Below, piece after piece: positions 994-44,784 of a stretch of DNA of 64,000 nt. Under the pieces are notes generated by a model that was given only the letters and a program-made list of their open reading frames with translations, did no database searches and was not told the origin of the DNA. Positions within the stretch are counted from its first letter, which is position 1. Every line of letters begins with the position of its first letter. The DNA is taken from contig CAVRJM010000001.1 in assembly GCA_963722075.1 (NCBI GenBank), positions 64,001-128,000 on the forward strand. The letters run 5' to 3'. This stretch comes from Candidatus Babeliales bacterium (lineage in GTDB: Bacteria > Babelota > Babeliae > Babelales > JANWKD01). The translations under genes were made by a program, and so were the position numbers.

Positions 994-2271
994 CTAAAAA
1001 CGCTCTTCCCATGCTAAAAACCCCATTTGCGTTTGAGATCCCGGTGATATGCCAAATGCCGTTACCGTTAATGTATCACCGGGATACAAATATACCGTTA
1101 AATTATTTTCAGGAATAAACGTATTATAAGGGGTAAAGTTAGTATCAAAAAAATTATATAATTCAGTTCCGGTTCCAACGGTATATGTTCCGGTGCTGCT
1201 TGATAGAACTACCGAATTGACGCTATCAACATTAGTAAAAGTTGTTCCGGTAATAACGGCATTTCTAAGTAATCTAAAACTGGTAACAGTATCGCCTGTT
1301 ACGGCTGATCCCATGGATACAAAGGAGATGCGCACAATAACTTTATTTGGTTTCCCTTGATAAGTAAGTTGGTTTTGAATGGCAAAAATGAATGTTTCTG
1401 TTGCATTTATCAGATTTATTGGAGTAAATTGCCCAGCGGTAAAGAATCTACTTTGAGCAACACTTGGTTCAGCAACAATACCGGCATTCCAACCGGCAGT
1501 GGCAACTGTTACATTCGTTGTAGAACCGGTTGATTTAACTTGAGCGGTCATGGGTAGAATAGGATTGCCAAAAGAAGGATTGGGGTTGACGTTAGTATTA
1601 TTTATCTGATGGAACGTAATCCAGGTGCCATTAGTATTTAAAATTTGGAAGGTAATCTGCATGCCGCCAGTCCACCCATAATCAATTCTGAATACGTTTA
1701 TATCTGCAGTATTGATGGTAAATCCGCTTGCTCCAGTACCATTCAATTTATCCATATTGAATGCTGATTGTGGGATGATAGTATCAACTGCATTTTGTCT
1801 AAATAAGATTGAAAATGTTGTGCCATTAAATCCAACTGCAGCGCCATCATTAGCATCAAACACTCCAATCCATTGTGTTGAGTTAGCGGCTGAACCTGCT
1901 GGCCACATGGCAGAAAAGAATGTATAACCATCATGGCCGGCCATATATTTAAGATATTTTTTGCTTTGTAATTGCGCAAAAGCGGTTGCTCCTGTTCCAG
2001 AGGAGACGATTGCCATGCTGGTAAATGATTGAACAAGGCCTGATGAAAAGGTTGAGGTGGTAATATCGTACGTTGTTACACCATACTCAAATAAATCACT
2101 GACTTGATCAAATCTATCTTCTACGATGGTATCACCAAAAATACTGATAAATCCTGAACTTTCAAGACATAAGATAGGGGTGGGTAAAATCAACCATAAT
2201 AAAATTACATATTTAAAAGTACTATATATTTTTTTGCCCATAGATTGCCCTTTAATGAACTGCTCCGCCAT
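994..2271 (-). CDS. Secreted stand-alone head protein (type 1 head, ends WEERF); likely start ATG 2241
   Basis: Signal peptide followed by a domain nearly identical to the C-terminal domain of 3687-5084 (QLQSKKYLKYMAGHDG...MDKLNGTGASGF...FRIDYGW). No stalk repeats. Confidence 0.85.
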   Translation of the reverse strand: MAEQFIKGQSMGKKIYSTFKYVILLWLILPTPILCLESSGFISIFGDTIVEDRFDQVSDLFEYGVTTYDITTSTFSSGLVQSFTSMAIVSSGTGATAFAQLQSKKYLKYMAGHDGYTFFSAMWPAGSAANSTQWIGVFDANDGAAVGFNGTTFSILFRQNAVDTIIPQSAFNMDKLNGTGASGFTINTADINVFRIDYGWTGGMQITFQILNTNGTWITFHQINNTNVNPNPSFGNPILPMTAQVKSTGSTTNVTVATAGWNAGIVAEPSVAQSRFFTAGQFTPINLINATETFIFAIQNQLTYQGKPNKVIVRISFVSMGSAVTGDTVTSFRLLRNAVITGTTFTNVDSVNSVVLSSSTGTYTVGTGTELYNFFDTNFTPYNTFIPENNLTVYLYPGDTLTVTAFGISPGSQTQMGFLAWEERF

Positions 2272-2315
2272 AATACACGAAATAAATTTGCCACACCTTT
2301 GAATCAGTATCCTAT

Positions 2316-3653
2316 TTATGGAATTGAAACATTTTGAAAGGTAAATGGACTTGATGTATTAAATGTTGCTAATGTTCCTACATAAATTGGAATAACGGTA
2401 GCGCCAGGACTGTAATTGGTTCCATTTTTTATGGCAATATTTGAAACTATGTTATTAGTTGTTGCAGCACCAGCATTATCAAATAATCCAAAGGTGATAG
2501 GGCCACCAACATTATAACCGATCGTATTATTGGTGATATTTGAGGTGGTGGTATTATTAAGATCTATGCCAAAAGACGTATTAGTGAGACCAGTATTTCC
2601 GCGTATATCACAATTTTCAATAGCGCTGAAATCCAAAGAATTGAAAAATACACCATACCCATTATTGGCACCGCCATTTCCTTTTGCTATACAGGTGTGC
2701 AGCTCTATTAAAAGCCCATTACTTGCCGAAAATCCTAAACCATCTAACGCACTACTATTGTTACCATTTCCTTGGCAGCTTATATATTGAATGCCATTGC
2801 CATTATTGGTATAAAATCCGCAGGTAGAAAAGGTGCCAGCATTATCGACAGAAATACATGAATCACATGCAATATTATTTGATGAATCAAATCCAAAGCC
2901 AACCATTAATGAATTTGGATTTGAACTGGTATTACTGTTGTTTAGAGAGAAAGAATTTTGGATGATGCAATCTTTAGAATTGAGTAAATATATTCCCGCT
3001 GTTAAAAGGCCCCCGCCAACATTATCGTTTGCAACAAGGTCATTTATTATAATCGCATTGCAATTTTCAAGTTGTATTCCGACACAATTTCCTGAAGAGG
3101 TTTGAATATTATGCACTAATGACTCATTAGTTATAGTTGCTGAATCAACATTTTTTAATAATATGCCATATGCGGGATCTCCCGAAAAATTCATAATGCT
3201 TTCTGAAGTAACGTTATCGAGAAAAAGATTGGTTATTGGATCTGAGGCATTTCCATCGGCTATAACGCCTGCATTTTCAACTGCATTAATAACTAAATTG
3301 GTTAAATAAATACTATCATTAGGCGCCTGTATTTGAATTCCATAGCTGGTCATATCAGTAATAACGCCATTGTTAATGGTAATATTATTGATTCCAGGAT
3401 TGATTTGTATTCCAACGACATCTGGTTGCTCGAATCCGGCAACTTGGTTAATAGAGAACCCATTCATTTCTATCATGACATTATCAGAGTTAACTACAAC
3501 ACATGCTTGTCCTGATGAAGTTAATGCAAATTCCATTGAGCCAGCTAATGAAAATAACCCTGGCGAATTGATTATTACCGGTTCAGTATTTACGCTCTGC
3601 AGTAAGCGCGGGAAGATTAATGTTAAAAATAAGACAAAACTTTTTTTGTTCAT
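2316..3653 (-). CDS. Secreted right-handed parallel beta-helix (pectin lyase-like) protein; stand-alone type 2 head
   Basis: Signal peptide; N/G/C-rich repeats (GIQLENCNAIIIN, GIYLLNSKDCIIQN); similar to the C-terminal domain of 9194-12304. Confidence 0.85.
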   Translation of the reverse strand: MNKKSFVLFLTLIFPRLLQSVNTEPVIINSPGLFSLAGSMEFALTSSGQACVVVNSDNVMIEMNGFSINQVAGFEQPDVVGIQINPGINNITINNGVITDMTSYGIQIQAPNDSIYLTNLVINAVENAGVIADGNASDPITNLFLDNVTSESIMNFSGDPAYGILLKNVDSATITNESLVHNIQTSSGNCVGIQLENCNAIIINDLVANDNVGGGLLTAGIYLLNSKDCIIQNSFSLNNSNTSSNPNSLMVGFGFDSSNNIACDSCISVDNAGTFSTCGFYTNNGNGIQYISCQGNGNNSSALDGLGFSASNGLLIELHTCIAKGNGGANNGYGVFFNSLDFSAIENCDIRGNTGLTNTSFGIDLNNTTTSNITNNTIGYNVGGPITFGLFDNAGAATTNNIVSNIAIKNGTNYSPGATVIPIYVGTLATFNTSSPFTFQNVSIP

Positions 3654-3686
3654 AATATTTTTCCTTTTTTAATAATAAAAATACAA

Positions 3687-5084
3687 TTAAAAACGTTCTT
3701 CCCAAGCTAATATACCAATTACCAGCTGGCCACCACCTTGAATGTTGATACCTGTTATGGTTAAAGTTTCACCAGGATAAAGATATAAGAGCAAATCTTG
3801 TTCGGGGACAAAGGTATTATAAGGAACTGAGTTAGCATTCATAAAGGTAAACATATTTGTTCCTGATGCAGCCAATCCCCCTGACGTAGTCAACGTTCCT
3901 GCCGTACTGATTTGCATTACAGAATTTACTGTATCAACATCCGTAAAAGAAGTGCCGGTAATACTTGCATTTCGTAGTAATCTAAATAGCGTTACGGTTC
4001 CTCCCGTGACGCCCACGCCAGCTGAAACAAAGGATATACGAACAATAACTTTATTTGGTTTGGTTTGATAGGTAGATTTATTTTGGAATGCTACCACAAA
4101 AGTTTCAGTTCCATTATCGGCAATGGCTGTTCGCGTAAGTTGCCCTGCCGTAAAGAACCTACTTTGAGCAACACTTGGTTCAGCAACAATTCCTGCATTC
4201 CAACCAGCGGTAGCAATAGTTACATTCGTTGTAGAACCGGTCGATTTAACTTGAGCGGTCATGGGTAAAATAGGATTACCAAAAGAAGGATTCGGATTTA
4301 CATTGGTATTATTTATTTGATGGAAGGTGATCCATGAGCCATTGGTATTTAAAATTTGGAAGGTAATTTGGGTACCGCCTGTCCAGCCATAATCAATTCT
4401 GAATACGTTTAAATCTGCAGTATTGATGGTAAATCCGCTTGCTCCAGTACCATTCAATTTATCCATGTTGAATGATGATTGTGGAATTATAGTATCTACC
4501 GCATTTTGCCTAAATAAAATTGAGAATGTTGTGCCATTAAATCCAACAGCAGCGCCATCATTAGCATCAAACACGCCGATCCATTGTGTGGAGTTAGCAG
4601 AAGATCCTGCTGGCCACATAGCAGAAAAGAAAGCGTATCCATCGTGACCTGCCATATATTTAAGATATTTTTTGCTTTGTAGTTGAGCAAAAGCGGTGGC
4701 ACCGGTACCTGATGAAACAATAGCCATGCTCGTGAATGATTGAACAAGCCCTGATGAGAAGACTGATGTAGTAATGTCATATGTTGGTACACCATATTCA
4801 AATAGATCACTAACTTGATCTGTTCTATCTGATACAATAGCATCTCCAAAGCCAGAGGTAAATCCTGAGCTACCGCTGGTTGTACTGCTACATACTAAAT
4901 GGGCCAGAATAGTGAACGTGGCATTAAAGCCGGCAGCGAGTGCGGTGAAGGTACCATTAAAGTCAGTATTAAGGAGAGTGAAAACGCCATTAAAATCATT
5001 AGTTAAATTAGCACAGCAGGTGGTTAAGCTATTATTAATGGAATTAAGAACGGTAAAGGTACCGTTGAATTCTGAATTGATCAA
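3687..5084 (-). CDS. C-terminal fragment of fibre protein A: last stalk units plus type 1 head domain
   Basis: ORF begins inside FNGTFT repeats, then a SSTTSGSSG linker, then the head ending WEERF. Confidence 0.7.
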   Translation of the reverse strand: MINSEFNGTFTVLNSINNSLTTCCANLTNDFNGVFTLLNTDFNGTFTALAAGFNATFTILAHLVCSSTTSGSSGFTSGFGDAIVSDRTDQVSDLFEYGVPTYDITTSVFSSGLVQSFTSMAIVSSGTGATAFAQLQSKKYLKYMAGHDGYAFFSAMWPAGSSANSTQWIGVFDANDGAAVGFNGTTFSILFRQNAVDTIIPQSSFNMDKLNGTGASGFTINTADLNVFRIDYGWTGGTQITFQILNTNGSWITFHQINNTNVNPNPSFGNPILPMTAQVKSTGSTTNVTIATAGWNAGIVAEPSVAQSRFFTAGQLTRTAIADNGTETFVVAFQNKSTYQTKPNKVIVRISFVSAGVGVTGGTVTLFRLLRNASITGTSFTDVDTVNSVMQISTAGTLTTSGGLAASGTNMFTFMNANSVPYNTFVPEQDLLLYLYPGETLTITGINIQGGGQLVIGILAWEERF

Positions 5085-7690
5085 TGTAAAGGTACTGTTA
5101 AAACCGGTAGCAATAGCCGTGAAAGTACCATTAAATTCATTGGTAATGTTAGCGCAACAAGTGGTGAGAGTATTGTTAATAGAATTTAATACCGTAAAGG
5201 TGCCGCAGCATCATTATTAATTGAGGTTACTGAAGAAAGTATTGAATTTAATACCGTGAACGTACCGTTAAAATCATTGGTTAAATTAGCGCAGCACGTA
5301 GTCAATGTATTATTAATTGAATTGAGAACGGTGAATGTGCCATTAAATTCAGTACTAAGTACCGTAAATACAGGTGATAAATTAACGTTCACATTAGAAA
5401 GAGCGGTGAAGACGCCATTAAAATCAGTACTGAGCACAGTAAATACGCCATTAAAGTCGTTAGTTAAATTAGCGCAGCAGGTGGTTAAGCTATTGTTGAT
5501 AGAATTAAGAACGGTGAAGGTACCATTGAATTCTGAGTTTATTAACGTGAAGGTACCATTAAAGCCAGTAGCAATAGCCGTGAAGGTACCATTAAATTCG
5601 TTGGTAATATTGGCACAGCACGTGGTGAGGGTGTTGTTAATAGAATTTAATACCGTAAAGGTGCCCGCAGCATCATTATTAATTGAGGTTACTGAAGAAA
5701 GTATTGAATTTAATACCGTGAAAGTACCACCAAAGTCAGTATTAAGGAGAGTAAATACACCATTAAAATCATTAGTTAAATTAGCACAGCAGGTGGTTAA
5801 GCTATTATTAATTGAATTAAGAACAGTGAAGGTGCCGTTGAATTCTGAATTGATTAAGGTAAATGTACCATTAAAGCCATTACTAAGAACCGTGAAAGTT
5901 CCATTAAATTCATTGGTAATGTTAGCGCAGCACGTGGTGAGGGTATTATTAATAGAATTGAGAACAGTAAAGGTACCAGCAGCATCATTATTAATTGAGG
6001 TTACTGAAGAAAGTATTGAATTTAATACCGTGAAAGTACCACCAAAGTCAGTATTAAGGAGAGTAAATACACCATTAAAATCATTAGTTAAATTAACGCA
6101 GCAGGTGGTTAGGCTATTATTAATGGAGTTAAGGACAGTAAAGGTGCCGTTGAATTCTGAATTGATTAAGGTAAATGTACCATTAAAGCCATTACTAAGA
6201 ACCGTGAAAGTTCCATTAAATTCATTGGTAATGTTAGCGCAGCACGTGGTGAGGGTATTGTTAATAGAATTGAGAACGGTAAATGTGCCAGCAGCTTCAT
6301 TATTAATTGAAGTTACTGATGGAAAGTATTGAATTTAATACGGTGAACGTACCACCAAAATCAGTATTAAGGAGGGTGAAAACGCCATTAAAGTCATTAG
6401 TTAAATTAGCGCAGCAGGTGGTTAAGCTATTATTAATGGAGTTAAGGACAGTAAAGGTGCCGTTGAACTCAGTGTTTAATAATGTGAAGGTACCATTAAA
6501 TTCGTTGGTAATATTGGCACAGCACGTGGTGAGGGTGTTGTTAATAGAATTTAATACCGTAAAGGTGCCCGCAGCATCATTATTAATTGAGGTTACTGAT
6601 GAAAGTATTGAATTTAAAACGGTGAACGTACCATTGAATTCAGTATTTAGGAAAGTGAACGTGCCATTGAATTCGGAATTTATCAAGGTAAAGGTGCCAT
6701 TGAAGTTATTTTGTATTTCTGCACAGCACGTGGTTAATGTGTTCTCTATATCTTCAAGCATGGTGAATGTACCAATAATGGTTTCGATTTGTGTCGTAAG
6801 CGTATTGGTAACATCAATTAGTTCAGAAATAGTGATGATCAGGGATGAAGTACTTTCAACAAGCTCATCCACCGTTTCTACTAAAATAGAGGTGGTTACT
6901 TCTAAGGTGGCAACCAAGGTGCTAAATGTTTGAATAATGCTACAGCAGCTAGTTAATGTATTTTCAATGTCAAAAAGCGTTGTAAAGGTTCCATTGAAAT
7001 TGTTTTGTGTTTGAGCGCAACACGTAGTTAATGTAGTCTCGATATCATTAAGTACCGTAAATACCCCAGTAAAATCAACCGTTGCAGTTAACACGATATT
7101 ATCAAGTACGGTGAAAACGCCATTAAATTCATTAGTAATGTTGGCACAACAGGTAGTGAGCGTATTTTCAATATCATTTAAGACGGTAAAAGTACCATTG
7201 AAATTATTTTGTGTTTGAGCACAGCAGGTGGTTAATGTAGTCTCGATATCATTAAGTACCGTAAATACCCCAGTAAAATCAACCGTTGCAGTTATTACGA
7301 TATTATTAAGTACGGTGAAAACGCCATTAAAGTCATTTTCGATGGTAGCACAACAGGTAGTAAGCGTATTTTCAATATCATTTAAGACGGTAAAAGTACC
7401 ATTGAAATTATTTTGTGTTTGAGCACAGCAGGTGGTTAATGTAGTCTCGATATCATTAAGTACCGTAAATACCCCAGTAAAATCAACCGTTGCAGTTATC
7501 ACGATATTATCAAGTACGGTGAAAACGCCGTTGAAATCATTAGTGAGGTTAGCGCAACATGTTGTAAGGGTATTATTAATATCAGTTAGCGTAGTAAACA
7601 CACCTGAAAAATCGACTGTTGCTGTTACTTGGAGATTATTAAGCACCGTGAAAACGCCGTTGAAATCATTAATTAATGTATCGCAACAAT
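4915..7690 (-). repeat. Intragenic tandem repeats encoding the stalk of fibre A (204-bp and 312-bp higher-order units)
   Basis: Near-identical blocks offset by 204 nt (7228 vs 7432) and 312 nt (5681 vs 5993). Confidence 0.85.
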
Positions 7691-8243
7691 TTTGTTGATT
7701 TTGGCAACATTGATTAATAATATTTTGTAAGTTTCTGAGAATTTGTAAAACTTCAGAAAAATCGCATACTAATGGACCTACAATAGAACCATCCATAAAA
7801 CCGGGCGCATTTGGACGTAGTGCACGTGAGAACTGTTCTTGTAAAGTAGAGTTACTTATTTTTTCAATGATAAACGAGAGTGCTTGATTAAAATCGTTGA
7901 TTGGTAAAACTGTATCTTCATTATCGAGTATTCTATAACAGTTAAGGAAGCCTTGCGGTATTTCATCAATGGTATTGTTTTGGTAACTATATTCTATAAT
8001 TACATTAAAGAGTTCTTTAAGATTTAATCCTTTTAAATCGTCTTCGGTAATAGAAACGCATGGGGTGTTTTCAGATTGAAAATGTTCTTCGCAAGCATCA
8101 GCGGTAGATTGTTCTTCGATTATGTTACGTGAAAATTTTTCTAAATGATCAATATGATATGAGACTGTTACTATTGGTTGTATGAGCAATGATATAAATA
8201 CCAATGAGTTAAAAAAAAGTTTTACCTTCTTTTGTAGCTTCAT
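6303..8243 (-). CDS. N-terminal fragment of fibre protein A: signal peptide, conserved N-domain, TTCC/FNGTFT stalk
   Basis: 646-aa ORF; N-domain closely similar to 9194-12304; ends prematurely just after the indel at 6321. Confidence 0.75.
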   Translation of the reverse strand: MKLQKKVKLFFNSLVFISLLIQPIVTVSYHIDHLEKFSRNIIEEQSTADACEEHFQSENTPCVSITEDDLKGLNLKELFNVIIEYSYQNNTIDEIPQGFLNCYRILDNEDTVLPINDFNQALSFIIEKISNSTLQEQFSRALRPNAPGFMDGSIVGPLVCDFSEVLQILRNLQNIINQCCQNQQNCCDTLINDFNGVFTVLNNLQVTATVDFSGVFTTLTDINNTLTTCCANLTNDFNGVFTVLDNIVITATVDFTGVFTVLNDIETTLTTCCAQTQNNFNGTFTVLNDIENTLTTCCATIENDFNGVFTVLNNIVITATVDFTGVFTVLNDIETTLTTCCAQTQNNFNGTFTVLNDIENTLTTCCANITNEFNGVFTVLDNIVLTATVDFTGVFTVLNDIETTLTTCCAQTQNNFNGTFTTLFDIENTLTSCCSIIQTFSTLVATLEVTTSILVETVDELVESTSSLIITISELIDVTNTLTTQIETIIGTFTMLEDIENTLTTCCAEIQNNFNGTFTLINSEFNGTFTFLNTEFNGTFTVLNSILSSVTSINNDAAGTFTVLNSINNTLTTCCANITNEFNGTFTLLNTEFNGTFTVLNSINNSLTTCCANLTNDFNGVFTLLNTDFGGTFTVLNSILSISNFN

Positions 8244-8286
8244 AAAACTTTACCCTTTTTTTAATAAAAACAAAATTTATTAAAAT

Positions 8287-8318
8287 TAATCATATTAGGT
8301 AAAAAAATAACAAGAGTT
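8287..8318 (-). promoter_or_regulatory. Conserved upstream motif of fibre genes (CTTGT-N13/14-ATATGATTA)
   Basis: The same bipartite motif lies upstream of 12304 (12344-12371) and 20200 (20237-20263). Confidence 0.55.
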
Positions 8319-8361
8319 TATTAACAAAAAATAAAAAGAACCTGCATGCGGTTGACCGGAG

Positions 8362-8395
8362 TGTCATCACGAGGCCTTCAGGCCATGGTGATCCA
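8362..8395 (+). repeat. YGTC...CCA REP-like element
   Basis: TGTC-ATCAC-GA-GGCC-TTCA-GGCC-ATG-GTGAT-CCA. Confidence 0.85.
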
Positions 8396-8494
8396 GTAAT
8401 AAAAAAGGTTCATCTCTTTTAAATTCTTAAAACTGTTTATAGTATTGATCTTTATTAAGAACGTAATATTAAAGTCTTATTTTGAAACTAATAA

Positions 8495-9184
8495 TTATTT
8501 TAAATAAATGTGTAAAAAACACTCAGTAGATGTAACTTTTTCCCAGATCCAGTGTGAAACTTTGGGTATAGTTCTCATATATTCTTCAATCTTCTTTTTA
8601 TTATAATAGTTATTATAGATTGGCAAGCCGCGTGGATATAAAAGATAGATTGCATCAGGTTCTTGTTCTGGGGGTATGAAAAAAACGATTAATACTTCAT
8701 AACGTGCAACACGAATAAGTTCTTTAATCGCTTTATGATAATAGTGAAGGTGTTCAAGAATATGCCGCGCATAACTGATATCAAAAGAATTGTCTTTTAA
8801 AGGAATATTTTCAATAGATCCTTGTATAACGGGAATATTTTTTTGTTGGCAAAAATCTACTAGTTTTGGCGTAATTTCTATTCCTTGATACGTTATAGCG
8901 ATAGTATCTTGTAACAACCCAAAATAATCGGTTCCTGCTCCACAAGGAATATCTAAGATGCTTGTATAATTATGTTGCTGAATATAGTGGCGCAAAGCTT
9001 TGCGTGACTGTGTATTAAAATCACGTGCCCAAACTTCTAAATCGGGCCAAAAGCCAATTGTACCTGCAAACTGTTGCCACCATAGTTCATAAGGTTGTAA
9101 GTCTAACTCTTTTATCTGTAGTGATGCTTTTTGAGCATTAAACCAGATTAATCCGATCCAAAATATTCTATAAAATAACTTCAC
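8495..9184 (-). CDS. Class I SAM-dependent methyltransferase with signal-peptide-like N-terminus
   Basis: SILDIPCGAG motif I, GIEIT, IPLKDNSFDISYARHILEHL, ELIRVAR; begins 9 nt downstream of fibre B. Confidence 0.85.
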   Translation of the reverse strand: MKLFYRIFWIGLIWFNAQKASLQIKELDLQPYELWWQQFAGTIGFWPDLEVWARDFNTQSRKALRHYIQQHNYTSILDIPCGAGTDYFGLLQDTIAITYQGIEITPKLVDFCQQKNIPVIQGSIENIPLKDNSFDISYARHILEHLHYYHKAIKELIRVARYEVLIVFFIPPEQEPDAIYLLYPRGLPIYNNYYNKKKIEEYMRTIPKVSHWIWEKVTSTECFLHIYLK

Positions 9185-9193
9185 GGTAGTTCA

Positions 9194-12100: not shown

Positions 12101-12304
12101 ATTTAATCCTTTTAGATCTTCTTCTTTAATAGAAATACAAGGAGCATCTTTTTCAGGTAAGGGAAGAGAATTCTCTTCAATGGTATCTATTGGAAATTTT
12201 TCTAGCGGCCTATATTGGTACGGGAGCAGTACTAATGGTTGTAATAAGAGAGAAATTAATACCAATGAATCAAAAAAAAGTTTTATATTCTTTTGTGGCT
12301 TCAT
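9194..12304 (-). CDS. Cys-Cys repeat fibre protein B with C-terminal beta-helix (type 2) head
   Basis: Signal peptide, N-domain, ~390-aa TTCC/FNGTFT stalk, then YIISTSGNYFLQENI...ANDVTLDL and beta-helix repeats. Confidence 0.85.
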   Translation of the reverse strand: MKPQKNIKLFFDSLVLISLLLQPLVLLPYQYRPLEKFPIDTIEENSLPLPEKDAPCISIKEEDLKGLNLKELFNIIIEYSYQNNLLDEIPLAFINCYKILNTDNTMLPINDLNQSLSFIIEKICNPTIQEQLSRAPRPDAPGFMDGSIVGPLVCDFSEILEILRNLQNIINQCCQNQVECCNIIINDLNGVFTVLNNLTVTVTVDFTDVFTTLSEINTTLTTCCAQTQNNFNGTFTVLNDIETTFTSCCANITNEFNGVFTVLNNLTITATVDFSGVFTVLNDIETTLTTCCAQTQYNFNGTFTVLNDINNTLTECCATIENDFNGVFTVLSNLKVTATVDLSGVFTVLNDIDSTLTTCCANLTNDFNGVFTLLNTDFGGTFTVLNSILSSVTSINNEAAGTFTVLNSINNTLTACCANIANEFNGTFTVLETGFNSTFTLINSEFNGTFTVLNSINNSLTTCCANLTNDFNGVFTLLNTDFGGTFTVLNSILSSVTSINSESAGTFTVLNSINNTLTACCANITNEFNGTFTALNSIVNKNCSNIPITQADVDAAGGSYIISTSGNYFLQENIVSTGVAYSSIIQIMANDVTLDLCQRQLGGLPGNLSSGIFIDTATHVTIKNGIIQNMFIAGIVVNGGSNDIELDTITTLSCDFYGFQLGDNGFVASQATNTDPIVNSRITHCAALYCSQLMYTPPTLLFRELTRFTLSNLGGLFAFNCFNLVIKNSLFNQNLNNDVFGVGLLNCSNCTLFNCTMNGNLANQFSSGLSLIGSNDNYIENCTFNGNLGNNITRYTVGLGAGVVLNSSSNNVFINCQASNNAGDSAIGFASMDGANNVFKECVSTNNTTNVESAYGFSLENETASEILECQTSGNIGITESAGYICTTGTANVLEYCVAVDNQATSSAAGFILRAETGSSIKYCTSNNNIANDPTNGFSYGILLDDNLQTPPNCINCYLQNNSLANNLGPFVSFGIQDVATNASTSLVGANFAFNNGTNFDVTYVSALLPVVSGSFSTVLPATGTTGSFDNIDINP

Positions 12305-12343
12305 AACTAACGTCCTTTTTTAATAAATTAAATTTACTAAAAT

Positions 12344-12375
12344 TAATCATATTAGTTAAAAAAAGCACAAGAGTT
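12344..12375 (-). promoter_or_regulatory. Conserved upstream motif of fibre gene B
   Basis: Reverse complement AAACTCTTGTGC...AATATGATTA, matching the motif upstream of fibres A and C. Confidence 0.55.
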
Positions 12376-12495
12376 TAAAAAACAAAATAAAAATATCCCA
12401 TTCTCCTTTTTAAAGTCCAATGGTTTTGCCATAAGAAAATTTTTTATTTATCCTTTATGTAAAGCGTACAGATGCAAAAACTGAGGTATTTTTAG

Positions 12496-14418
12496 ATGAA
12501 TGATAAATTTTATATAACGACTCCTATATATTATGTTACTGCAAAACCACATCTGGGTTCCCTTTACTCGACTTTACTTGCTGATGTGATTATGCGTTGG
12601 CAAAAATTATTAGGCAAAAATACCTTTTTCTTAACGGGTACGGATGAGCATGGCCAAAAAATAGCGCAAGCAGCAGCTAAAGAAAAATTAGAACCAAAAA
12701 AATTTATTGATAGTTTTGTTCCATATTATAAGGGGTTATGGCGTCACTACCGATTGGATTATACCTATTTTATTCGTACCACTGATGAGCAACATGTAAA
12801 AGCAGTGCAGCTTTGGTTACAAAAGTTAATTGATAGCGGCGATATTTATAAAGATCATTATGAAGGATGGTACTGTGTCTCTGATGAGGCATTTGTTCCT
12901 GAAGCTGTTGACACTACTCAGGCTCCGGCCTGCCCTTTGTGTGGTCGTGAAACTATTATGGTTTCAGAAGAGTCATATTTTTTCCGCTTATCTGCGTATC
13001 AAGATCGTTTATTAGCATTTTATGAAGCACATCCTGATTTTATTGTACCGCATGAACGTGCGCAAGAAGTGATCAACTTTGTTAAATCAGGGTTACGTGA
13101 TTTAAGTATTTCACGTACTACCGTTACGTGGGGAATTCCCTTTCCGGATAATCAAAAGCATGTTACGTATGTATGGGCTGATGCGCTTAATAACTACATT
13201 ACGGCAATAGGGTATGGCCAACCAGAAAAAGAAAAAGAGTTTAATTACTGGTGGCCAGCTGATGTGCAAATCTTAGGAAAAGACATTTTGCGTTTTCATG
13301 CTATTTATTGGCCAGCGTTTTTAATGGCTTCTGATTTGCCGCTCCCAAAACAGCTATTAGTACATGGCTGGATAAAAGTAAATAATGAAAAGATGTCCAA
13401 ATCACGCCATAATGTGGTGGATCCAAAAATACTTGCTGATACCTATGGCGTTGATCAAATTAGATATTATTTAATGAGACAAATGTCTATTTCACAAGAT
13501 TCTAATTTTTCTATTGAGGAATTAGAACAGCGAATTACTGCTGATTTAGCATATGATTTGAGTAATTTATTAAATCGTATGTCTTCATTAACAGAAAAAA
13601 ATCAAATTTTTTCAATCCCGGTTCCAGCGCAATGGTCTCCTGAAGCCGTTGCTTTATACCAGCAAAGCATACAGATGCTTACTGAATTGCAATCACATAT
13701 GAATAATTACGTAGTTCATTTAGGATTAGCAACCATCTGGAAATTTATTGCTCAAGCAAATGCATTTTTTCATGCTCATGAACCATGGAAACTGATTAAA
13801 GAAGATAAAGAAAAATTTTTAGAAGTTTGTTCAGCCGTGTGCCATAGTTTGCGTACAATTAGTATGGCGTTATGGCCCGTAATGCCTTCTAGTATGGAGC
13901 AATTATTGCAAAGTTTAGGCGTGGTGACAGCTTTTGGAAATCAAACTAATCTTATTGAATTACTCATGCATGAATCATGGGATCACAGCTTTACAATTCA
14001 AAAAATTCCGGTTCTTTTTAATAAAATTGAGAAGCAAACGGAAGAAAAAGCAGAAGGAATTGCTCGGAATGACGTGGTAGAAGAACCTACTGTAATTGAA
14101 ATTACTGACTTTGCAAAAATGCAATTGCGTGTGGGCACCATTGATGAGTGTGAGACTATAGCAAAATCAGATAAATTGTATAAATTACAAGTTAATTTTG
14201 GCTCCTTAGGAACCAGACAGGTATTAAGCGGTATTCGTCATTTTTTTTCGCCTGAAGAATTAAAGAATAAACAGGCTGTTTTTGTTTATAATTTAAAACC
14301 GCGCCAAATGATGGGGTTGCAATCACAGGGAATGATTTTAACGGCTAAAGATGATGCAGGTAAATGTCATTTGATTGTTCCTCAACAATTGGTTCCTAAC
14401 GGTACACTTTTACAATAG
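12496..14418 (+). CDS. metG: Methionyl-tRNA synthetase with C-terminal tRNA-binding OB domain
   Basis: FYITTPIYY...PHLGS, TGTDEHGQKI, YVWADAL, GKDILRFH, KMSKS; C-terminal NLKPRQMMGLQSQGMIL. Confidence 0.98.
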   Translation: MNDKFYITTPIYYVTAKPHLGSLYSTLLADVIMRWQKLLGKNTFFLTGTDEHGQKIAQAAAKEKLEPKKFIDSFVPYYKGLWRHYRLDYTYFIRTTDEQHVKAVQLWLQKLIDSGDIYKDHYEGWYCVSDEAFVPEAVDTTQAPACPLCGRETIMVSEESYFFRLSAYQDRLLAFYEAHPDFIVPHERAQEVINFVKSGLRDLSISRTTVTWGIPFPDNQKHVTYVWADALNNYITAIGYGQPEKEKEFNYWWPADVQILGKDILRFHAIYWPAFLMASDLPLPKQLLVHGWIKVNNEKMSKSRHNVVDPKILADTYGVDQIRYYLMRQMSISQDSNFSIEELEQRITADLAYDLSNLLNRMSSLTEKNQIFSIPVPAQWSPEAVALYQQSIQMLTELQSHMNNYVVHLGLATIWKFIAQANAFFHAHEPWKLIKEDKEKFLEVCSAVCHSLRTISMALWPVMPSSMEQLLQSLGVVTAFGNQTNLIELLMHESWDHSFTIQKIPVLFNKIEKQTEEKAEGIARNDVVEEPTVIEITDFAKMQLRVGTIDECETIAKSDKLYKLQVNFGSLGTRQVLSGIRHFFSPEELKNKQAVFVYNLKPRQMMGLQSQGMILTAKDDAGKCHLIVPQQLVPNGTLLQ

Positions 14419-14420
14419 TA

Positions 14421-15698
14421 TTATGCCCATTGTTCTATCCAATTAATTGATGCATTGGCAAAAGTGGAAAGTCCGGTAATTAAATTATAAGCTGTTATCG
14501 TGAGCATATCTCCCGGGTATAATTCAATAATAAGATCATTTTCAGAAGAAGCAAAGGGAGCAACACTTCTGCGGAGCAAATTATTATTCAAACTGGTATT
14601 TGAAAAGGCAGTTAAAAATAATGAACCAGTACCGCTACTATAAGTGCCTGCGGTGCTTACGCTTACTACTGAGTTGCTATTAACCGCTGAAAAAGAGGTA
14701 CCGGTTACCGTTGCATTTTTATAAACATTAAAAACGGTAAACCCGTCAGCCGAGGCTTTAGTTAACAACGCTGATTGAGAAAAGGGAACACTGGTTTGAA
14801 TAAGGGTAATGACTACGGTAATTCTATTTGAAAAACTCTTAAAGGTATTATTATTTTTTATTGATATAAGATATGATTCAGTAGTTCCTATGGCAGCATT
14901 AAAAACTCCAGTGGTAAAAAAACGGTTGCCTGCTATATCATTTGTTGATTGAGTCGCATAATTCCATGATGCTGTTGCCAGTTCTAATATAGTTGCTCCA
15001 GCGGTTTTACTTACTTGAGCTGTTATGGGTAATTGTGGGTTAGAAAATATTGGTGAAGAAATAGTATTAGTTTTTTCGATAGTATGAAAAAGTATCCAGC
15101 TATTATGTTGACTTAAAATATAAAAATTTATTTCACTTGCTTCCCATCCCCAGGCAATTCTAAAAACATTTATATCTGCAGTATTAAGCGTGAAACCACT
15201 GTGTCCAGTGCCATTTAACGGATCTACATTAAATGAGCTTTGTGCAATGGTGGTGCTGGTACCATTATTACGATATAGAATTGAAAAGGTAGTATTATTA
15301 AATCCGATTGCTACGCCATCTGTTTGATTAAAAGGGCCAATCCATTGGGTGGAACTAGTAGCTGATCCATTAAGGAAGGCAGCAGTAAAAAAACAATCAG
15401 ATTCATGCCCGGGATGATATACTACTGATTCATTGCTTTGCACTTGTGCAAAGCCGGTGACTCCGGTACCGCTTGAGACAATCGCCATACTATTGGAACT
15501 CTGAACCGTGCCACTTGAAAAAGTAGAGGTAGTAACTTGATAGGAGGGAATACCATATTGAAATTCAACCACAATATAATCATCACGTGAAGAAACTAGT
15601 GTCTCTTCAAAGATGGAAGTAAACGCTGTTTGATCTTGCGCTTGTATTTGAATAATAAATAAAACAACAAATACAAATATATTTATTATACTATTCAT
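14421..15698 (-). CDS. Secreted stand-alone type 1 head protein (divergent paralog)
   Basis: ATG at 15698 overlaps the fibre C stop (TAATG). Signal peptide; YHPGHES, QWIGPF, VDPLNGTGHSGF, FRIAWGW; ends INWIEQWA. Confidence 0.85.
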   Translation of the reverse strand: MNSIINIFVFVVLFIIQIQAQDQTAFTSIFEETLVSSRDDYIVVEFQYGIPSYQVTTSTFSSGTVQSSNSMAIVSSGTGVTGFAQVQSNESVVYHPGHESDCFFTAAFLNGSATSSTQWIGPFNQTDGVAIGFNNTTFSILYRNNGTSTTIAQSSFNVDPLNGTGHSGFTLNTADINVFRIAWGWEASEINFYILSQHNSWILFHTIEKTNTISSPIFSNPQLPITAQVSKTAGATILELATASWNYATQSTNDIAGNRFFTTGVFNAAIGTTESYLISIKNNNTFKSFSNRITVVITLIQTSVPFSQSALLTKASADGFTVFNVYKNATVTGTSFSAVNSNSVVSVSTAGTYSSGTGSLFLTAFSNTSLNNNLLRRSVAPFASSENDLIIELYPGDMLTITAYNLITGLSTFANASINWIEQWA

Positions 15699-18600
15699 TA
15701 AAATTGTTCTTCCCATGAAAGTGCTGCAATAACTTCAATACTGGATCCTTGTAACGTTTCTCCCACTATCGTGAGAGTGTCTCCTGGATACAGTAAAATG
15801 GAAACCTCAGATGCAGGAATAAACGTTGAAACAGGCCCGCTGCCACTTGTTGAAACGGGCATAAAAAGTATGGTACTACCACCACTAACATAGGTTCCTA
15901 CCACACTATAGGCAATAACTGAGTTATTACCTATTGGGATATAACTGGTTCCCGAATTGGTCGCATTTATGAAGAAAGTAAATAATGCAGAAGCGGCTGA
16001 AGAGGTAGTAATTCCCCCGGAAAAAAATGAAACTCGTACAATTACTTTATTAGGAAGACTTTGGTAAGTAGTTTGGTTTTGAATGGAAAATACATAGGTT
16101 TGCCCGGTAAGAGAGATCTGGTTACTTGACCGTCCAAAAAAGCGGCTATTAGCTACGCTTGGTTGTCCTATAACGCCTGCATTCCATGAACCGGTTGAAA
16201 TGGTGGGGCTTGTACTGTTACTAGCTGTGTTAGTAACAATGGCACTAATAGGGAGTATGGGATTAGAAAAGGTGGGCGTTTGTGCGATATTTGCTCGATT
16301 TATTTGATGGAACGTAATCCAAGACCCATTGGTATCAAGTATTTGATAGATAATAGGGGCGGCGCCAAGCCATCCATAATCTATCCGAAACACATTAAGA
16401 TCATTTGGATTTAACACAAAACCGCTGGGGCCAGTACCATTAAGCGGATCCATATTAAATGAAGATTGGCCTACAATGGTATTAGAACTGTTTTGCCTAA
16501 ATAAAATGGAAAAGGTAGTACCATTAAATCCAACGGCAGCACCATCAACCGAATCAAAAACCCCAATCCATTGAGTTGAGTTCGCTGCGGATCCACTGAA
16601 CATTGCGCTAAAAAAGGCATACCCATCATGGCCAGAGCGATAGCGTAAATATTTTTTGCTCGATAATTGCGCGTATCCCGTGGTTCCCGTTCCAGAAGAT
16701 ATGGTAGCCATGCTAGAAGCAGAAGAAACTACACCAGAGGAGAAGGTAGAAGTAGTTGTATCGTAACCAGTAACGCCGTATTCAAATAAAACGCTTATAT
16801 AATCAAATCTATTTTCGGTAATTGCATCACCAAAAATAGAAACAAAGGGTGTTGGTTGGGTGGTTAAAGTGGTAATAACGCTATTAATTGCCGTGAAGGT
16901 GCTATTGAATCCATTGGTAATACTACTTTGTATGGTAGCCAGTGCAGTATAGGTGCCATTGAATTCATTGGTGATGGTGTTGCAGCACGTAGTGAGTGTA
17001 GTATTAAGCGCACTGAGAGCAGTGAATGTACTATTAAATTCGGTATTAAGAGCGTTGATGGCAGTGAAGGTACCAGCAAAATCAGTATTAATAGTTGTTT
17101 GAATACTGTTAAGAGCCGTGAAAGTACCATTAAATTCATTAGTAATGTTATTGCAGCAGGTAGTGAGTGTTGTATTTAAGGCATTAAGTGCAGTAAAGGT
17201 ACCATTGAACTCTGAATTAATTAAAGTGAAGGTGCTATTAAAACCAGTAGCAAGTGCAGTAAAGGTACCATTGAATTCATTGGTGATATTGTTGCAACAA
17301 GTGGTGAGTGTAGTATTAAGCGCACTGAGAGCAGTGAATGTACTATTAAATTCGGTATTAAGAGCGTTGATGGCAGTGAAGGTACCAGCAAAATCAGCAT
17401 TAATAGTGGTTTGAACAGCGCTAATGGCAGTTAATGTACCGTTAATGCTTTCTTGAGTTATAGAAATAAGACTAAAGGTATATTTAAACTGATTATCAAT
17501 ATCATTATCTAGAGCAGTAAGTGTTGTGAAAACGTTATTGAATTCAGTGCTCATAACAGTGAAGGTACCGTTAAAACCAGCAGCAAGAGCAGTATAGGTG
17601 CCGTTGAATTCATTGGTAATGTTATTGCAGCAGGTAGTGAGTGTTGTATTTAATGCATTAAGTGCAGTAAAGGTACCATTAGAAGCATTAGTGATTGAAT
17701 TAAGTACAGTAAAGGTACCATTGAACTCTGAATTAATTAACGTGAAGGTGCTATTAAAACCAGTAGCAAGTGCAGTAAAGGTACCATTGAATTCATTGGT
17801 GATGGTGTTGCAGCACGTAGTGAGTGTAGTATTAAGCGCACTGAGAGCAGTGAATGTGCTATTAAATTCGGTATTAAGAGCGTTGATGGCAGTGAAGGTA
17901 CCAGCAAAATCAGTATTAATAGTTGTTTGAATACTATTAAGAGCCGTGAAAGTACCATTAAATTCATTAGTAATGTTATTGCAGCAGGTAGTGAGTGTTG
18001 TATTTAAGGCATTAAGTGCAGTAAAGGTACCATTAGAAGCATTAGTGATTGAATTAAGCACGGTGAAAGTACTATTGAATTCTGAATTAATTAACGTGAA
18101 GGTGCTATTAAAACCAGTAGCAAGTGCAGTATAGGTACCATTAAATTCATTGGTGATATTGTTGCAACAAGTGGTGAGTGTAGTATTAAGCGCACTGAGT
18201 ACGGTGAATGTGCTATTAAATTCGGTATTAAGAGCGTTGATGGCAGTGAAGGTACCAGCAAAATCAGTATTAATAGTTGTTTGAATACTATTAAGAGCCG
18301 TGAAAGTACCATTAAATTCATTAGTAATGTTATTGCAGCAGGTAGTGAGTGTTGTATTTAAGGCATTAAGTGCAGTAAAGGTACCATTAGAAGCATTAGT
18401 GATTGAATTAAGCACGGTGAAAGTACTATTGAATTCTGAATTAATTAAAGTGAAGGTGCTATTAAAACCAGTAGCAAGTGCAGTATAGGTACCGTTAAAT
18501 TCATTGGTGATATTGTTGCAACAAGTGGTGAGTGTTGTGTTCAATGCACTGAGCGTAGTAAAGATACCAGAAAAATCTACGGTTGCAGTTACATTGAGAT

Positions 18601-20200
18601 TATTGAGTGTAGTAAACACCCCATTAAATTCGTTAGTAATGTTGTTGCAGCAAGTCGTGAGCGTTGTATTTAATGCACTTAAAACGGTGAAGGTGCTATT
18701 GAACTCAGAACTGATTAAGGTGAAGGTACCGTTAAAGCCGGTATCGATTGCAGTGAAGGTTCCGTTAAATTCATTGGTGATATTAGCACAACATGCAGTA
18801 AGTGTATTGTTCAGATCTTCAATTATAGTGAAAGCACCTACCAAGTCAGCAAGTTGTGTGGTTAATGTTTCAGTAACTTCTAGTAGTGCAGAAATAGTAA
18901 TAATCAGGCCTGACGTACTTTCAACGAGTTCATCTACTGCTTCTACTAAAATAGAGGTGGTAACTTCTAAGGTAGCAACCAATGTACTAAATGTTTGAAT
19001 AACGCTACAGCAACTAGTTAATGTATTTTCAATATCATTGAGTGTGGTAAAGGTGCCATTAAAATTGTTTTCTGTTTGGGCACAGCAGGTGGTTAACGTA
19101 GTCTCGATATCATTAAGTACCGTAAATACCCCAGAAAAATCAACCGTTGCAGTTATCATGATATTATCAAGTACGGTGAAGACGCCATTAAATTCATTAG
19201 TGATGTTAGCACAACAGGTAGTGAGCGTACTTTCAATATCATTTAAGACGGTAAAAGTTCCATTGAAATTATTTTGAGTTTGAGCACAGCAGGTGGTTAA
19301 TGTAGTCTCGATATCATTAAGTACCGTGAATACCCCAGTAAAATCAACCGTTGCAGTTATCACGATATTATCAAGTACGGTGAAAACGCCATTAAATTCA
19401 TTAGTGATGTTAGCACAACAGGTAGTGAGCGTACTTTCAATATCATTTAAGACGGTAAAAGTTCCATTGAAATCATTAGTAAGATAAGCGCAACATGTTG
19501 TAAGGGTATTATTAATATCAGTTAGCGTAGTAAACACACCCGAAAAATCAACTGTTGTTGTTATTTGAAGATTATTAAGAACAGTAAAAACGCCATTGAA
19601 ATCATTAATTAAGGTATCGCAACAATTTATTTGGTTTTGACAACATTCTTGAATGAATATTTGTAATGATTTTAATGCATCTAAAATGGTAGCTAATTCT
19701 AATGACTGAGGCCCTACAATTGCATTTTCAGTTCCGATAGGGCGTGGTGCTCGGTTAAGAATGGCTATTGTTGCCGGATCCGTGAGCTTTTTTATAATGA
19801 AAGGTAATGCTTGATTTAAATCGATAATATCCACATGTGATAGGCCATTTTGAACAGCTTTACAACAATTAATAAATTCTTGTGGTATTTCTTCTAATGA
19901 ATTAGTTTCAACACAACTTTCAATGATTAAAGTGAGGAGCTCGGTAAAATTGATGCCGTCAATATTTTCTGGGTTAACATCAAAATAGCGATGGAAATCA
20001 GTACAGCATTCTTTTAGATCTTGGTTATACGCTATTTTATGCGATGTAGGTGATGGGTCCTGTGCATGATGGCTATGGGTGATCTGCTCTGTATAATTAA
20101 TATTTGATATGCTTTGCAATGCGCATATATAAGGGTTAGTAAATAATATAAGAGATAGAATAATGTGTATATAATCATTATTTTTTTTGAAAAGCTTCAT
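15698..20200 (-). CDS. Cys-Cys repeat fibre protein C (~1500 aa) with type 1 head
   Basis: Intact ORF, AAGGAA RBS before ATG 20200. Signal peptide, N-domain, ~930-aa stalk with 354-bp tandem units, head ending WEEQF. Confidence 0.88.
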   Translation of the reverse strand: MKLFKKNNDYIHIILSLILFTNPYICALQSISNINYTEQITHSHHAQDPSPTSHKIAYNQDLKECCTDFHRYFDVNPENIDGINFTELLTLIIESCVETNSLEEIPQEFINCCKAVQNGLSHVDIIDLNQALPFIIKKLTDPATIAILNRAPRPIGTENAIVGPQSLELATILDALKSLQIFIQECCQNQINCCDTLINDFNGVFTVLNNLQITTTVDFSGVFTTLTDINNTLTTCCAYLTNDFNGTFTVLNDIESTLTTCCANITNEFNGVFTVLDNIVITATVDFTGVFTVLNDIETTLTTCCAQTQNNFNGTFTVLNDIESTLTTCCANITNEFNGVFTVLDNIMITATVDFSGVFTVLNDIETTLTTCCAQTENNFNGTFTTLNDIENTLTSCCSVIQTFSTLVATLEVTTSILVEAVDELVESTSGLIITISALLEVTETLTTQLADLVGAFTIIEDLNNTLTACCANITNEFNGTFTAIDTGFNGTFTLISSEFNSTFTVLSALNTTLTTCCNNITNEFNGVFTTLNNLNVTATVDFSGIFTTLSALNTTLTTCCNNITNEFNGTYTALATGFNSTFTLINSEFNSTFTVLNSITNASNGTFTALNALNTTLTTCCNNITNEFNGTFTALNSIQTTINTDFAGTFTAINALNTEFNSTFTVLSALNTTLTTCCNNITNEFNGTYTALATGFNSTFTLINSEFNSTFTVLNSITNASNGTFTALNALNTTLTTCCNNITNEFNGTFTALNSIQTTINTDFAGTFTAINALNTEFNSTFTALSALNTTLTTCCNTITNEFNGTFTALATGFNSTFTLINSEFNGTFTVLNSITNASNGTFTALNALNTTLTTCCNNITNEFNGTYTALAAGFNGTFTVMSTEFNNVFTTLTALDNDIDNQFKYTFSLISITQESINGTLTAISAVQTTINADFAGTFTAINALNTEFNSTFTALSALNTTLTTCCNNITNEFNGTFTALATGFNSTFTLINSEFNGTFTALNALNTTLTTCCNNITNEFNGTFTALNSIQTTINTDFAGTFTAINALNTEFNSTFTALSALNTTLTTCCNTITNEFNGTYTALATIQSSITNGFNSTFTAINSVITTLTTQPTPFVSIFGDAITENRFDYISVLFEYGVTGYDTTTSTFSSGVVSSASSMATISSGTGTTGYAQLSSKKYLRYRSGHDGYAFFSAMFSGSAANSTQWIGVFDSVDGAAVGFNGTTFSILFRQNSSNTIVGQSSFNMDPLNGTGPSGFVLNPNDLNVFRIDYGWLGAAPIIYQILDTNGSWITFHQINRANIAQTPTFSNPILPISAIVTNTASNSTSPTISTGSWNAGVIGQPSVANSRFFGRSSNQISLTGQTYVFSIQNQTTYQSLPNKVIVRVSFFSGGITTSSAASALFTFFINATNSGTSYIPIGNNSVIAYSVVGTYVSGGSTILFMPVSTSGSGPVSTFIPASEVSILLYPGDTLTIVGETLQGSSIEVIAALSWEEQF
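16880..19630 (-). repeat. Intragenic stalk repeats of fibre C (354-bp higher-order unit = 118 aa)
   Basis: Near-identical blocks offset by 354 nt (17946 vs 18300; 17737 vs 18091). Confidence 0.85.
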
Positions 20201-20236: not shown

Positions 20237-20266
20237 TAATCATATTTTTTATAAAATAACAAGTTT
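20237..20266 (-). promoter_or_regulatory. Conserved upstream motif of fibre gene C
   Basis: Reverse complement AAACTTGTTATTTTATAAAAAATATGATTA. Confidence 0.5.
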
Positions 20267-20338
20267 TATAAGATAGAAATAATTGCGTATAAGCTATTAG
20301 CCTTATATGATAAAGGTAAAGATAAAGGATTAAAGAGA

Positions 20339-44761: not shown

Positions 44762-44784
44762 TCTTAAATAAGGAAAAGTAACGT

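Follow-up and report, generated by a model that had tools for sequence, protein, structure and literature searches.

Candidate trimeric surface fibres with Cys-Cys stalks, interchangeable heads and head-only proteins in a Babeliales genome

By what means do the Dependentiae (Babelota) locate protist hosts and get inside them? Passages of PMC6561590 and PMC12172432 describe cultured representatives of the phylum as parasites of protists, and a term search of the available text of the two papers gave no passage about adhesins of these bacteria. We addressed this open question in a 64,000-nucleotide (nt) stretch of DNA from a Candidatus Babeliales bacterium (hereafter the window; G000:C1:64001-128000; genome of 1.47 Mb, 35% GC), an organism likely living inside protists. 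Three paralogous genes of the window, A, B and C, encode long stalks marked by Cys-Cys (CC) pairs and one of two head types, and further genes encode such heads alone (free heads). On balance we favour a model according to which the long rods, their interchangeable heads and the head-only proteins would together form trimeric host-glycan-binding surface fibres, the free heads acting as accessory subunits. The loci provide concrete adhesin candidates, and host range could be predicted from the tips that they encode. Literature searches covering mainly the main texts of openly accessible papers listed none on these stalk/head proteins. The genes and their parts are listed below, with lengths in amino acids (aa).

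994-2241, minus strand: free type 1 head (lectin/jelly roll), 415 aa from the second ATG, with its own signal-like N-terminus
2316-3653, minus strand: free parallel beta-helix head, 445 aa, signal-like N-terminus
3687-5203, minus strand: gene A, 3' piece, end of the stalk and type 1 head (lectin domain ~4868-4155, jelly roll 4154-3687), without a signal peptide of its own
5204-6321, minus strand: gene A, middle piece, stalk repeats in another frame
6303-8243, minus strand: gene A, 5' open reading frame (ORF), 646 aa, signal-like N-terminus, N-domain, RALRP (residue 140), 12 CC repeats, headless
8287-8318, minus strand: 32-nt upstream motif common to genes A and B, candidate promoter
8495-9184, minus strand: S-adenosylmethionine-dependent methyltransferase with hydrophobic N-terminus, directly behind B
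9194-12304, minus strand: gene B, 1036 aa, signal-like N-terminus, N-domain, RAPRP (residue 134), CC stalk of ~375 aa, beta-helix head from residue ~546
12344-12375, minus strand: upstream motif of gene B, as that of gene A
14421-15698, minus strand: free type 1 head, 425 aa, its ATG overlapping the stop of C (TAATG)
15698-20200, minus strand: gene C, 1500 aa from the ATG at 20200, signal-like N-terminus, N-domain, RAPRP (residue 150), stalk of ~930 aa (the whole protein has 21 CC), then the type 1 head starting at residue 1118, its lectin domain at ~16849-16147 and its jelly roll ending at 15698

Much of the layout described in an earlier note on this DNA was borne out. B and C are single ORFs sharing a signal-like N-terminus, an N-domain of ~110-120 aa and a CC stalk, as does the 5' ORF of A; A and C carry the head ending in WEExF at the C-terminus and B a beta-helix (Pfam PF13229); free heads with signal-like starts lie downstream of A (2316-3653 and 994-2241) and of C (14421-15698), and the TAATG overlap behind C is present in the sequence. 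We scored a start as signal-like by a heuristic, i.e. a hydrophobic stretch with preceding Lys/Arg: the stretch is found in all six genes and the preceding basic residue in five of them. The stalk lengths hold for B (~375 aa) and C (~930 aa), whereas the ~945 codons of A are counted across breaks in that gene. The system extends beyond the window: the genome has a further six N-domain/CC-stalk genes, all ending in beta-helix heads (G000:C1:10890-18636 and C1:1222887-1230230), two of them with an inserted propeller and none with free heads directly behind.

The stalk is predicted to be a coiled coil. At least three CC pairs occur in only 9 of the 1027 genome ORFs of at least 150 aa, all of the stalk family, with 10-21 natural pairs per stalk protein at spacings of 25, 43, 47, 57 or 61 residues plus a few longer gaps (25-111 residues overall). 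Alignment of 35 CC pairs gave F(-13), L/I(-10), I/L(-7), L/F(-3) and both cysteines as invariant and I/L(+4), F(+8) and F(+12) as nearly invariant, seven invariant positions being reported. The hydrophobic period is 3.56-3.58 residues (25/7, a mix of heptads and hendecads) with a power of 19-25 compared to a maximum of 5.9-7.7 in 100 shuffles, and proline is absent. Relative to the hydrophobic vector the cysteines of a pair point at -76 and +25 degrees, one at the flank and one at the core. PMC4476739 describes an engineered coiled-coil trimer whose cysteines at g and a close three-fold disulfide rings; the stalk cysteines would be placed as in this 'cysteine zipper', a d/e reading or another oligomer also being compatible with the data. 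The engineered zipper is man-made, a parallel trimer of up to five rings in the same source, unlike the 10-21 natural pairs here, whose geometry is read from sequence only. A natural multi-ring cysteine zipper, if true, would represent a new stiff-rod design.

At ~0.15 nm per residue the predicted rod of B would measure ~55 nm and those of C and, across its breaks, of A ~140 nm. The surface of the gene C stalk contains 24% Thr, 15% Asn and 59 N-x-S/T sequons in 915 residues, making glycosylation possible. Paralogous stalks share identical DNA runs of 45-62 nt, and tape-measure profiles gave weak matches to the stalks. In two other genomes of the phylum (L161:4118-7738 in G110 and L165:5468-9566 in G109) short stalk genes without a head (286-345 aa, 3-5 CC, mostly Cys-terminal) stand four in tandem, their products being candidates for a base or cross-linking layer.

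The type 1 head, whose viral kinship the earlier note missed, belongs to PHROG 1645 'virion structural protein', a family recognised in viruses but still uncharacterised. Matches to this profile have E-values of 1.9e-37, 5.7e-24 and 1.8e-35, the head of C covering profile positions 41-439 of 440. No Pfam match above cut-off, no NCBIfam match and no PDB sequence match was obtained; Atlas matches are unnamed, mostly viral clusters, and a scan of named genomes with a single protein gave no match. The head profile collects 10,435 clusters at 50% identity, and at least 574 matched stretches were confirmed on viral contigs. Our searches found no solved structure or known ligand for PHROG 1645 members. 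The free heads, as small secreted-type proteins, could give a first structure and ligand for this large unsolved virion-protein family.

A model of the head (predicted local distance difference test score, pLDDT, 91) shows a ConA-lectin/GH16 fold at residues 6-234 followed by a single jelly roll. The lectin domain matches GH16 enzymes as a ConA-like beta-jelly-roll fold (Z 17.3, root-mean-square deviation (rmsd) 2.8, 179 aligned) at 6-13% identity. For the jelly roll the matches include a nanovirus capsid protein (Z 9.9, rmsd 3.3, 124 aligned) and Ena1 (Z 9.3); TNF/C1q/BclA domains score lower (Z 7.0-7.5) than viral single jelly rolls and Ena subunits do (Z 8.3-9.9). In Foldseek the PDB entry listed first is the receptor-binding domain of phage TM4, which matches in part (TM 0.31). 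Proteins of tailed phages, haloviruses and protist-infecting giant viruses match the fold over its whole length, with TM up to 0.89. In some phages the head homologue comes immediately after TMP-Dit-Tal, where receptor-binding proteins are usually encoded: in L073 it adjoins Dit and Tal, and L074, L076 and L077 show the same order judged by look-alike N-termini; in other phages the homologue is found near capsid or neck genes, i.e. the viral location is not uniform. The accessible part of PMC9146016 gives S-SZBM1_190 (424 aa) as detected in purified virions by 3 peptides, a protein that we equate by its length of 424 aa with head homologue gp086. HFTV1 gp20 (L154:10332-11588), which mass spectrometry detected in virions and which the text of the cryo-EM preprint mentions a single time, was equated by length (418 aa) with a fold match of the head; profile comparison of the head with gp20 was not significant. 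The HFTV1 turret head gp31 was rejected as a fold match, being a deacetylase-fold protein.

The bacterial copies are chromosomal, lie among housekeeping genes and have signal-like starts: the domain belongs to PHROG 1645, its role does not. In an unrooted tree of 43 bacterial-handle and 32 other sequences, the viral rows being thinned, the bacterial heads need 3-4 changes, and their placement in one clade is rejected (approximately unbiased (AU) test, p 4e-5). The tree indicates that the head was repeatedly exchanged between Babeliales and viruses, in a direction that it does not give, with signal peptides apparently added. We also weighed a giant-virus origin of the head; the closest of the viral contigs inspected resemble tailed phages, and with an unrooted tree we name no donor.

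The second head type, the beta-helix, matches PF13229 (right-handed parallel beta-helix) above the cut-off of 25.9 with 50.3 bits for B and 27.8 bits for the free head, the head of B having no PDB sequence match. The free beta-helix of the window is not the head of B, as had been claimed: the two share 26% identity and fall on different tree branches. It groups with six never-fused copies from G108, G025, G110 and G104 (support 98/79), a group of seven chosen after seeing the first tree. Each of these seven lies behind a long stalk gene, in five genomes of three families, and runs of free beta-helices follow beta-helix fibres in G110, G025, G104 and G098.

Stalks and type 1 heads assort almost independently across the 261 genomes of the phylum set, from which we fetched 20 loci around the type 1 head and 20 around the stalk. 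The type 1 head occurs in 20 genomes and the N-domain/CC stalk in 18; the two occur together only in G000, G108 and G025. Among named records, members of the head family come from 'candidate division TM6' and 'Candidatus Babeliales', and homologues of the stalk from 'Candidatus Dependentiae bacterium'. At its 20 loci the type 1 head is carried by CC coiled coils, by other helical repeats (G232, G243), by phage-fibre-like modules (G170, G082) or by collagen, where it follows uninterrupted Gly-X-Y runs of 106 (G072), 36 (G064) and 34 (G074) triplets. Collagen is a triple helix. The collagen stalks of relatives therefore provide the best evidence here that the type 1 head works on a trimer, and they imply a trimeric fibre by analogy. 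At the 20 stalk loci the usual C-terminal part is a beta-helix, in some cases with an inserted propeller, and other stalks (G109, G110) are headless. The proposal of a fibre or adhesin is thus strengthened by the amphipathic coiled-coil period, the lectin-fold and jelly-roll head, the collagen stalks and the free assortment of stalks and heads, host recognition staying its conjectural part.

The free heads are likely accessory subunits of the same appendage, judging from gene order and sequence comparison. Behind a fused type 1 head a free one follows within two genes downstream in 12 of 15 loci (2 in the window, 13 in relatives), and G108 and G025 share the window's order of stalk-head, free beta-helix and free type 1 head. 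Those junctions to free heads that were inspected are overlaps or 1-44 nt long, with 74 nt before 994-2241. Leaving out three free copies with unreliable starts, 17 of 18 free bacterial copies have a signal-like start compared to 1 of 58 viral ones. In the lectin domain the non-synonymous divergence (dN, 0.03-0.23) is far below the synonymous one (dS, 0.36 to saturated) in all seven pairs, so that the free heads, where tested, are under purifying selection as proteins and not silent cassettes.

Fused and free heads differ more in the jelly roll than in the lectin domain. The head at 994-2241 is 95% identical to that of gene A in the lectin domain and 63% in the jelly roll, the one at 14421-15698 52% and 34% identical to that of C. 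Three loci have 89-95% identity between fused and free copies in the lectin domain, compared to 35-64% in the jelly roll; lectin domain identity is 52-65% in the other seven genomes or loci compared. Within loci the dS of lectin domain and jelly roll is 0.70/1.48, 0.92/saturated and 0.36/2.33, with a smaller gap between genomes where both were computed (1.07/1.32, 1.05/1.27). The lower dS in the lectin domain suggests old exchange at the level of this domain.

At the base of the stalk the N-domain ends in the motif [RK]A[PLM]R[PV], which was defined from these same proteins. Within the first 220 residues it occurs in 9 of 1042 genome ORFs, compared to roughly one match estimated by chance: eight of the nine CC-stalk genes and one unrelated fibre gene. 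The latter, phage-fibre-like and encoding 3738 aa (G000:C1:1231436, plus strand), shares RAPRP with the CC stalks on an unrelated shaft. In relatives a looser pattern matched 25 of 338 ORFs, 22 of them long-fibre or stalk genes; 29 CC-rich ORFs lack the motif, many with degenerate forms (KSPRP, RAARP). The N-domain before the motif is 29 to ~160 residues long, reads as acidic and helical and has no Pfam or NCBIfam match and no usable Atlas match. The free heads of the window lack [RK]APR, which may be a processing or targeting site. The genome encodes VKOR, two Omp85 genes and one operon with two secretin genes (G000:C1:1151734-1160265), the latter being a candidate export route. As the earlier note had stated, a C-terminal anchor of the trimeric-autotransporter type is missing, with no match to the YadA anchor (PF03895) in the genome. 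Barrel-like genes ending in an aromatic residue near some loci were considered as an anchor family and rejected: there was one significant pair among 10 candidates and none adjoins a locus of the window.

Gene A (3687-8243), described before as one ORF, contains two frameshifts, and as sequenced its product is a 646-aa headless protein: frame 0 ends at 6303 after 646 aa, and the head is encoded in the third piece. Compared to four other repeat copies within the gene, the copy at 6338 has one extra base (6321/6322) and the copy at 5251 is one base short (near 5203), both changing a short homopolymer. Similar breaks split 2 of 46 loci of the assembly tested with proteins of relatives, two further rows being tandem paralogues and not counted. 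One of the two encodes a ComM/YifB-type ATPase (39160-40694, minus strand) and falls into two ORFs at a run of A, which points to residual assembly errors or pseudogenes in this genome. Gap-free matches across the break at 6321/6322 come from one contig of X1 (6125-6334) and one of X5 (6303-6513), extending only ~12 and ~19 letters past it, which is under the 31-letter rule, and X1 may be the source sample; they hint that the first break is real, without being proof. None of the contigs searched spans the break near 5203. The matching A-type gene has a stop at the start of the head in G108 and a frameshift in G025, and is intact in P0046, P0047, P0205 and P0228. In the present sequence gene A is inactive or headless, B and C being intact.

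These data can be combined into a mechanism. The proteins would be exported by Sec, the N-domain serving as a pro- or targeting domain that ends at [RK]APR and is cut there or bound by an anchor. Three chains would wind into a coiled coil of 55-140 nm, in which adjacent flank and core cysteines would close inter-chain disulfide rings, oxidised by the VKOR pathway, and the folded trimer would exit via the secretin system or a dedicated barrel. Outside, the distal, fast-diverging jelly roll and the lectin groove would set host specificity, and recombination in the conserved lectin domain could swap tips. The least certain step, to which we give somewhat less than an even chance, is that the free heads would reach the surface by docking on the fibre. 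Tentatively, and with more doubt than for the fibre itself, the whole may be an undescribed Babeliales platform with a pro-domain ending in [RK]APR as a signal for export or cleavage, a natural disulfide-zipped trimeric rod of more than 100 nm and covalent and non-covalent tips acquired from viruses more than once. As giant viruses that infect protists have the type 1 head too, it is maybe a receptor-binding module for protist glycans used by bacterial and viral parasites; if true, the secreted soluble heads would be a way into the function of a 10,000-cluster virion family.

Several points weigh against the proposed fibres. The stalk has high contents of Thr, Asn, Phe, Ile and Val, and the alpha moment is favoured over the beta moment in only 66-76% of windows along it. 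DsbB and DsbA-like proteins were searched in the genome without a match, and no anchor was identified for the fibres. The A-type gene is broken in all three assemblies with this layout that were read (G000, G108, G025). Three of the 15 fused loci (G243, G054, G055) have no free type 1 head downstream, and G045, G057 and G222 (92-95% complete) each have a single type 1 head, free, and no fused one; pairing is therefore not obligatory. A shared fold shows no function, and the fibre role is a prediction from the genes.

The single free copies of G045, G057 and G222 lend weight to a lesser but serious possibility, namely that the fibres are adhesins while the free heads act alone as soluble lectins, decoys or short separately held adhesins, sharing the operon through 3'-end duplication and need at the same stage. 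A fused type 1 head and the free one of its locus often pair as sisters, as expected of repeated local duplication, and the viral homologues are often stalkless. Accessory subunits are favoured by the seven never-fused beta-helices behind long stalks in five genomes of three families, with the reservation on how this group was chosen, by free heads matching the head type of the upstream fibre, and by lectin domains staying 89-95% identical between fused and free copies of three loci while the jelly rolls differ. Rather unlikely, in our view, is a disulfide-linked protective or clumping coat on an extracellular stage, resembling the BclA hairy nap, with the free jelly-roll heads forming the base that holds the N-terminal peptide of the stalk like ExsF. 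The Cys ladder and the Thr/Asn-rich surface fit such a coat, the short conserved stretch [IV]xGP right behind the putative cut site resembles the BclA leader, which is cleaved and docks on ExsF (as described in part of PMC12357932), and fold comparison of the jelly roll gave weak matches to ExsF, to the C-terminal domain of F-BclA and to Ena subunits (Z 7.0-9.3). Yet the exosporium leader (TIGR03720) gave no NCBIfam match at E<=0.1 in whole proteins or N-terminal 200-233-aa pieces of A, B and C; the type 1 head is missing in 15 of 18 N-domain/stalk genomes and the stalk in 17 of 20 type 1 head genomes, i.e. this head is not a general anchor, and tip diversity suits recognition better than armour.

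The best solved-structure matches of the N-terminal head domain being GH16 enzymes, the heads could also be glycan-degrading enzymes, a GH16-like hydrolase and a tailspike-like beta-helix held off the cell so as to degrade host coats or biofilm. Many beta-helices are lyases or depolymerases, and a heparinase II/III-like gene adjoins C. The GH16 catalytic motif, E-x-D-x(1,2)-E, is absent from an alignment of 68 sequences, which has no conserved glutamate pair and only D128, D139 and the mixed D/E columns 12 and 79 as conserved acidic columns; the window heads have no GH16 Pfam match, and identity to GH16 is 6-13%, leaving enzymes improbable. The earlier note had offered recombination donors as a role for the free heads. 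Silent donor cassettes for tip switching by gene conversion would agree with the lower dS of the lectin domain within loci and with the identical 45-62-nt runs of paralogous stalks; intact signal-like starts, translational coupling and strong purifying selection, together with a dS of 0.36-0.9 pointing to old and not ongoing exchange, make this very improbable as the main role, although the lectin domain bears signs of exchange with the fused copy. We give next to no credence to a decaying prophage or tail-like relic. The viral head family, the weak tape-measure matches of the stalks and the broken gene A recall one, but the 43 window proteins contain no capsid, portal, terminase or baseplate family in Pfam, the signal-like starts are not a feature of the viral copies, and the layout is conserved in many genomes among housekeeping neighbours.

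Among known systems, the best reading is that the proposed fibres work like the MAT fibres of Bdellovibrio without being members of them. In the accessible text of PMC10769870, MAT fibres likewise have a signal peptide, a common N-terminal domain, a long trimeric shaft and diverse, partly phage-like tips in a cell-recognising bacterium; their N-domain is beta-rich (~130 aa), their shafts are beta-helical and 13 of 21 end in an S74 chaperone. In contrast, we predict a Cys-Cys coiled-coil shaft with an amphipathic period of 3.57 residues, the genome has no match to S74 (PF13884), and head-only genes are co-encoded. Cyanomyophage proteins of PHROG 1645 and their fold relatives (HFTV1 gp20, Bodo saltans virus, Mimivirus AB-566-O17, Pyramimonas orientalis virus) have the same two-domain C-terminal module, the bacterial heads differing by signal-like starts and cell-made stalks. 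The Bacillus BclA/ExsF hairy nap and F-ENA/L-ENA, as far as part of PMC12357932 describes them, share a long stalk, a C-terminal jelly-roll head, a cleaved leader, multi-part gene clusters and CC motifs in some subunits; they differ in belonging to the spores of monoderms and in having collagen stalks, a C1q-type head and no Sec signal. Trimeric autotransporter adhesins (YadA/BadA) combine a signal peptide and a long stuttered coiled-coil stalk with a trimeric adhesive head, the head being N-terminal and the barrel C-terminal. The polarity is opposite here, the C-terminal WEExF strand belongs to the modelled jelly roll, and PF03895 is absent from the genome.

Further features were observed around these genes. 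The 32-nt upstream motif, which includes a T run, has only two matches genome-wide at up to 3 mismatches, before A and before B, and a looser copy lies before C (~20240-20275); together they may be a promoter with a slippery spacer. A sigma-70 scan gave fewer sites than shuffles (60 vs 84.7). A look-alike of the methyltransferase lies behind a B-type beta-helix gene in G104 (L171:3552-4229), so that the arrangement occurs in two families. The methionyl-tRNA synthetase gene adjoins fibre clusters with differing fibre genes in three genomes (window 12496-14418; L031:2911-4383 in G108; L170:759-2678 in G104). The heparinase II/III-like gene beside C spans 20339-22234 (plus strand). Farther along, 41873-46056 (plus strand) encodes a 962-aa secreted-type protein of no family and then a 423-aa barrel-like protein with a terminal Phe, followed by a NodZ-like fucosyltransferase gene (46166-47686, plus strand) and a D-Ala-D-Ala ligase gene (47700-49892, minus strand) with two complete ligase units within one 730-aa chain.

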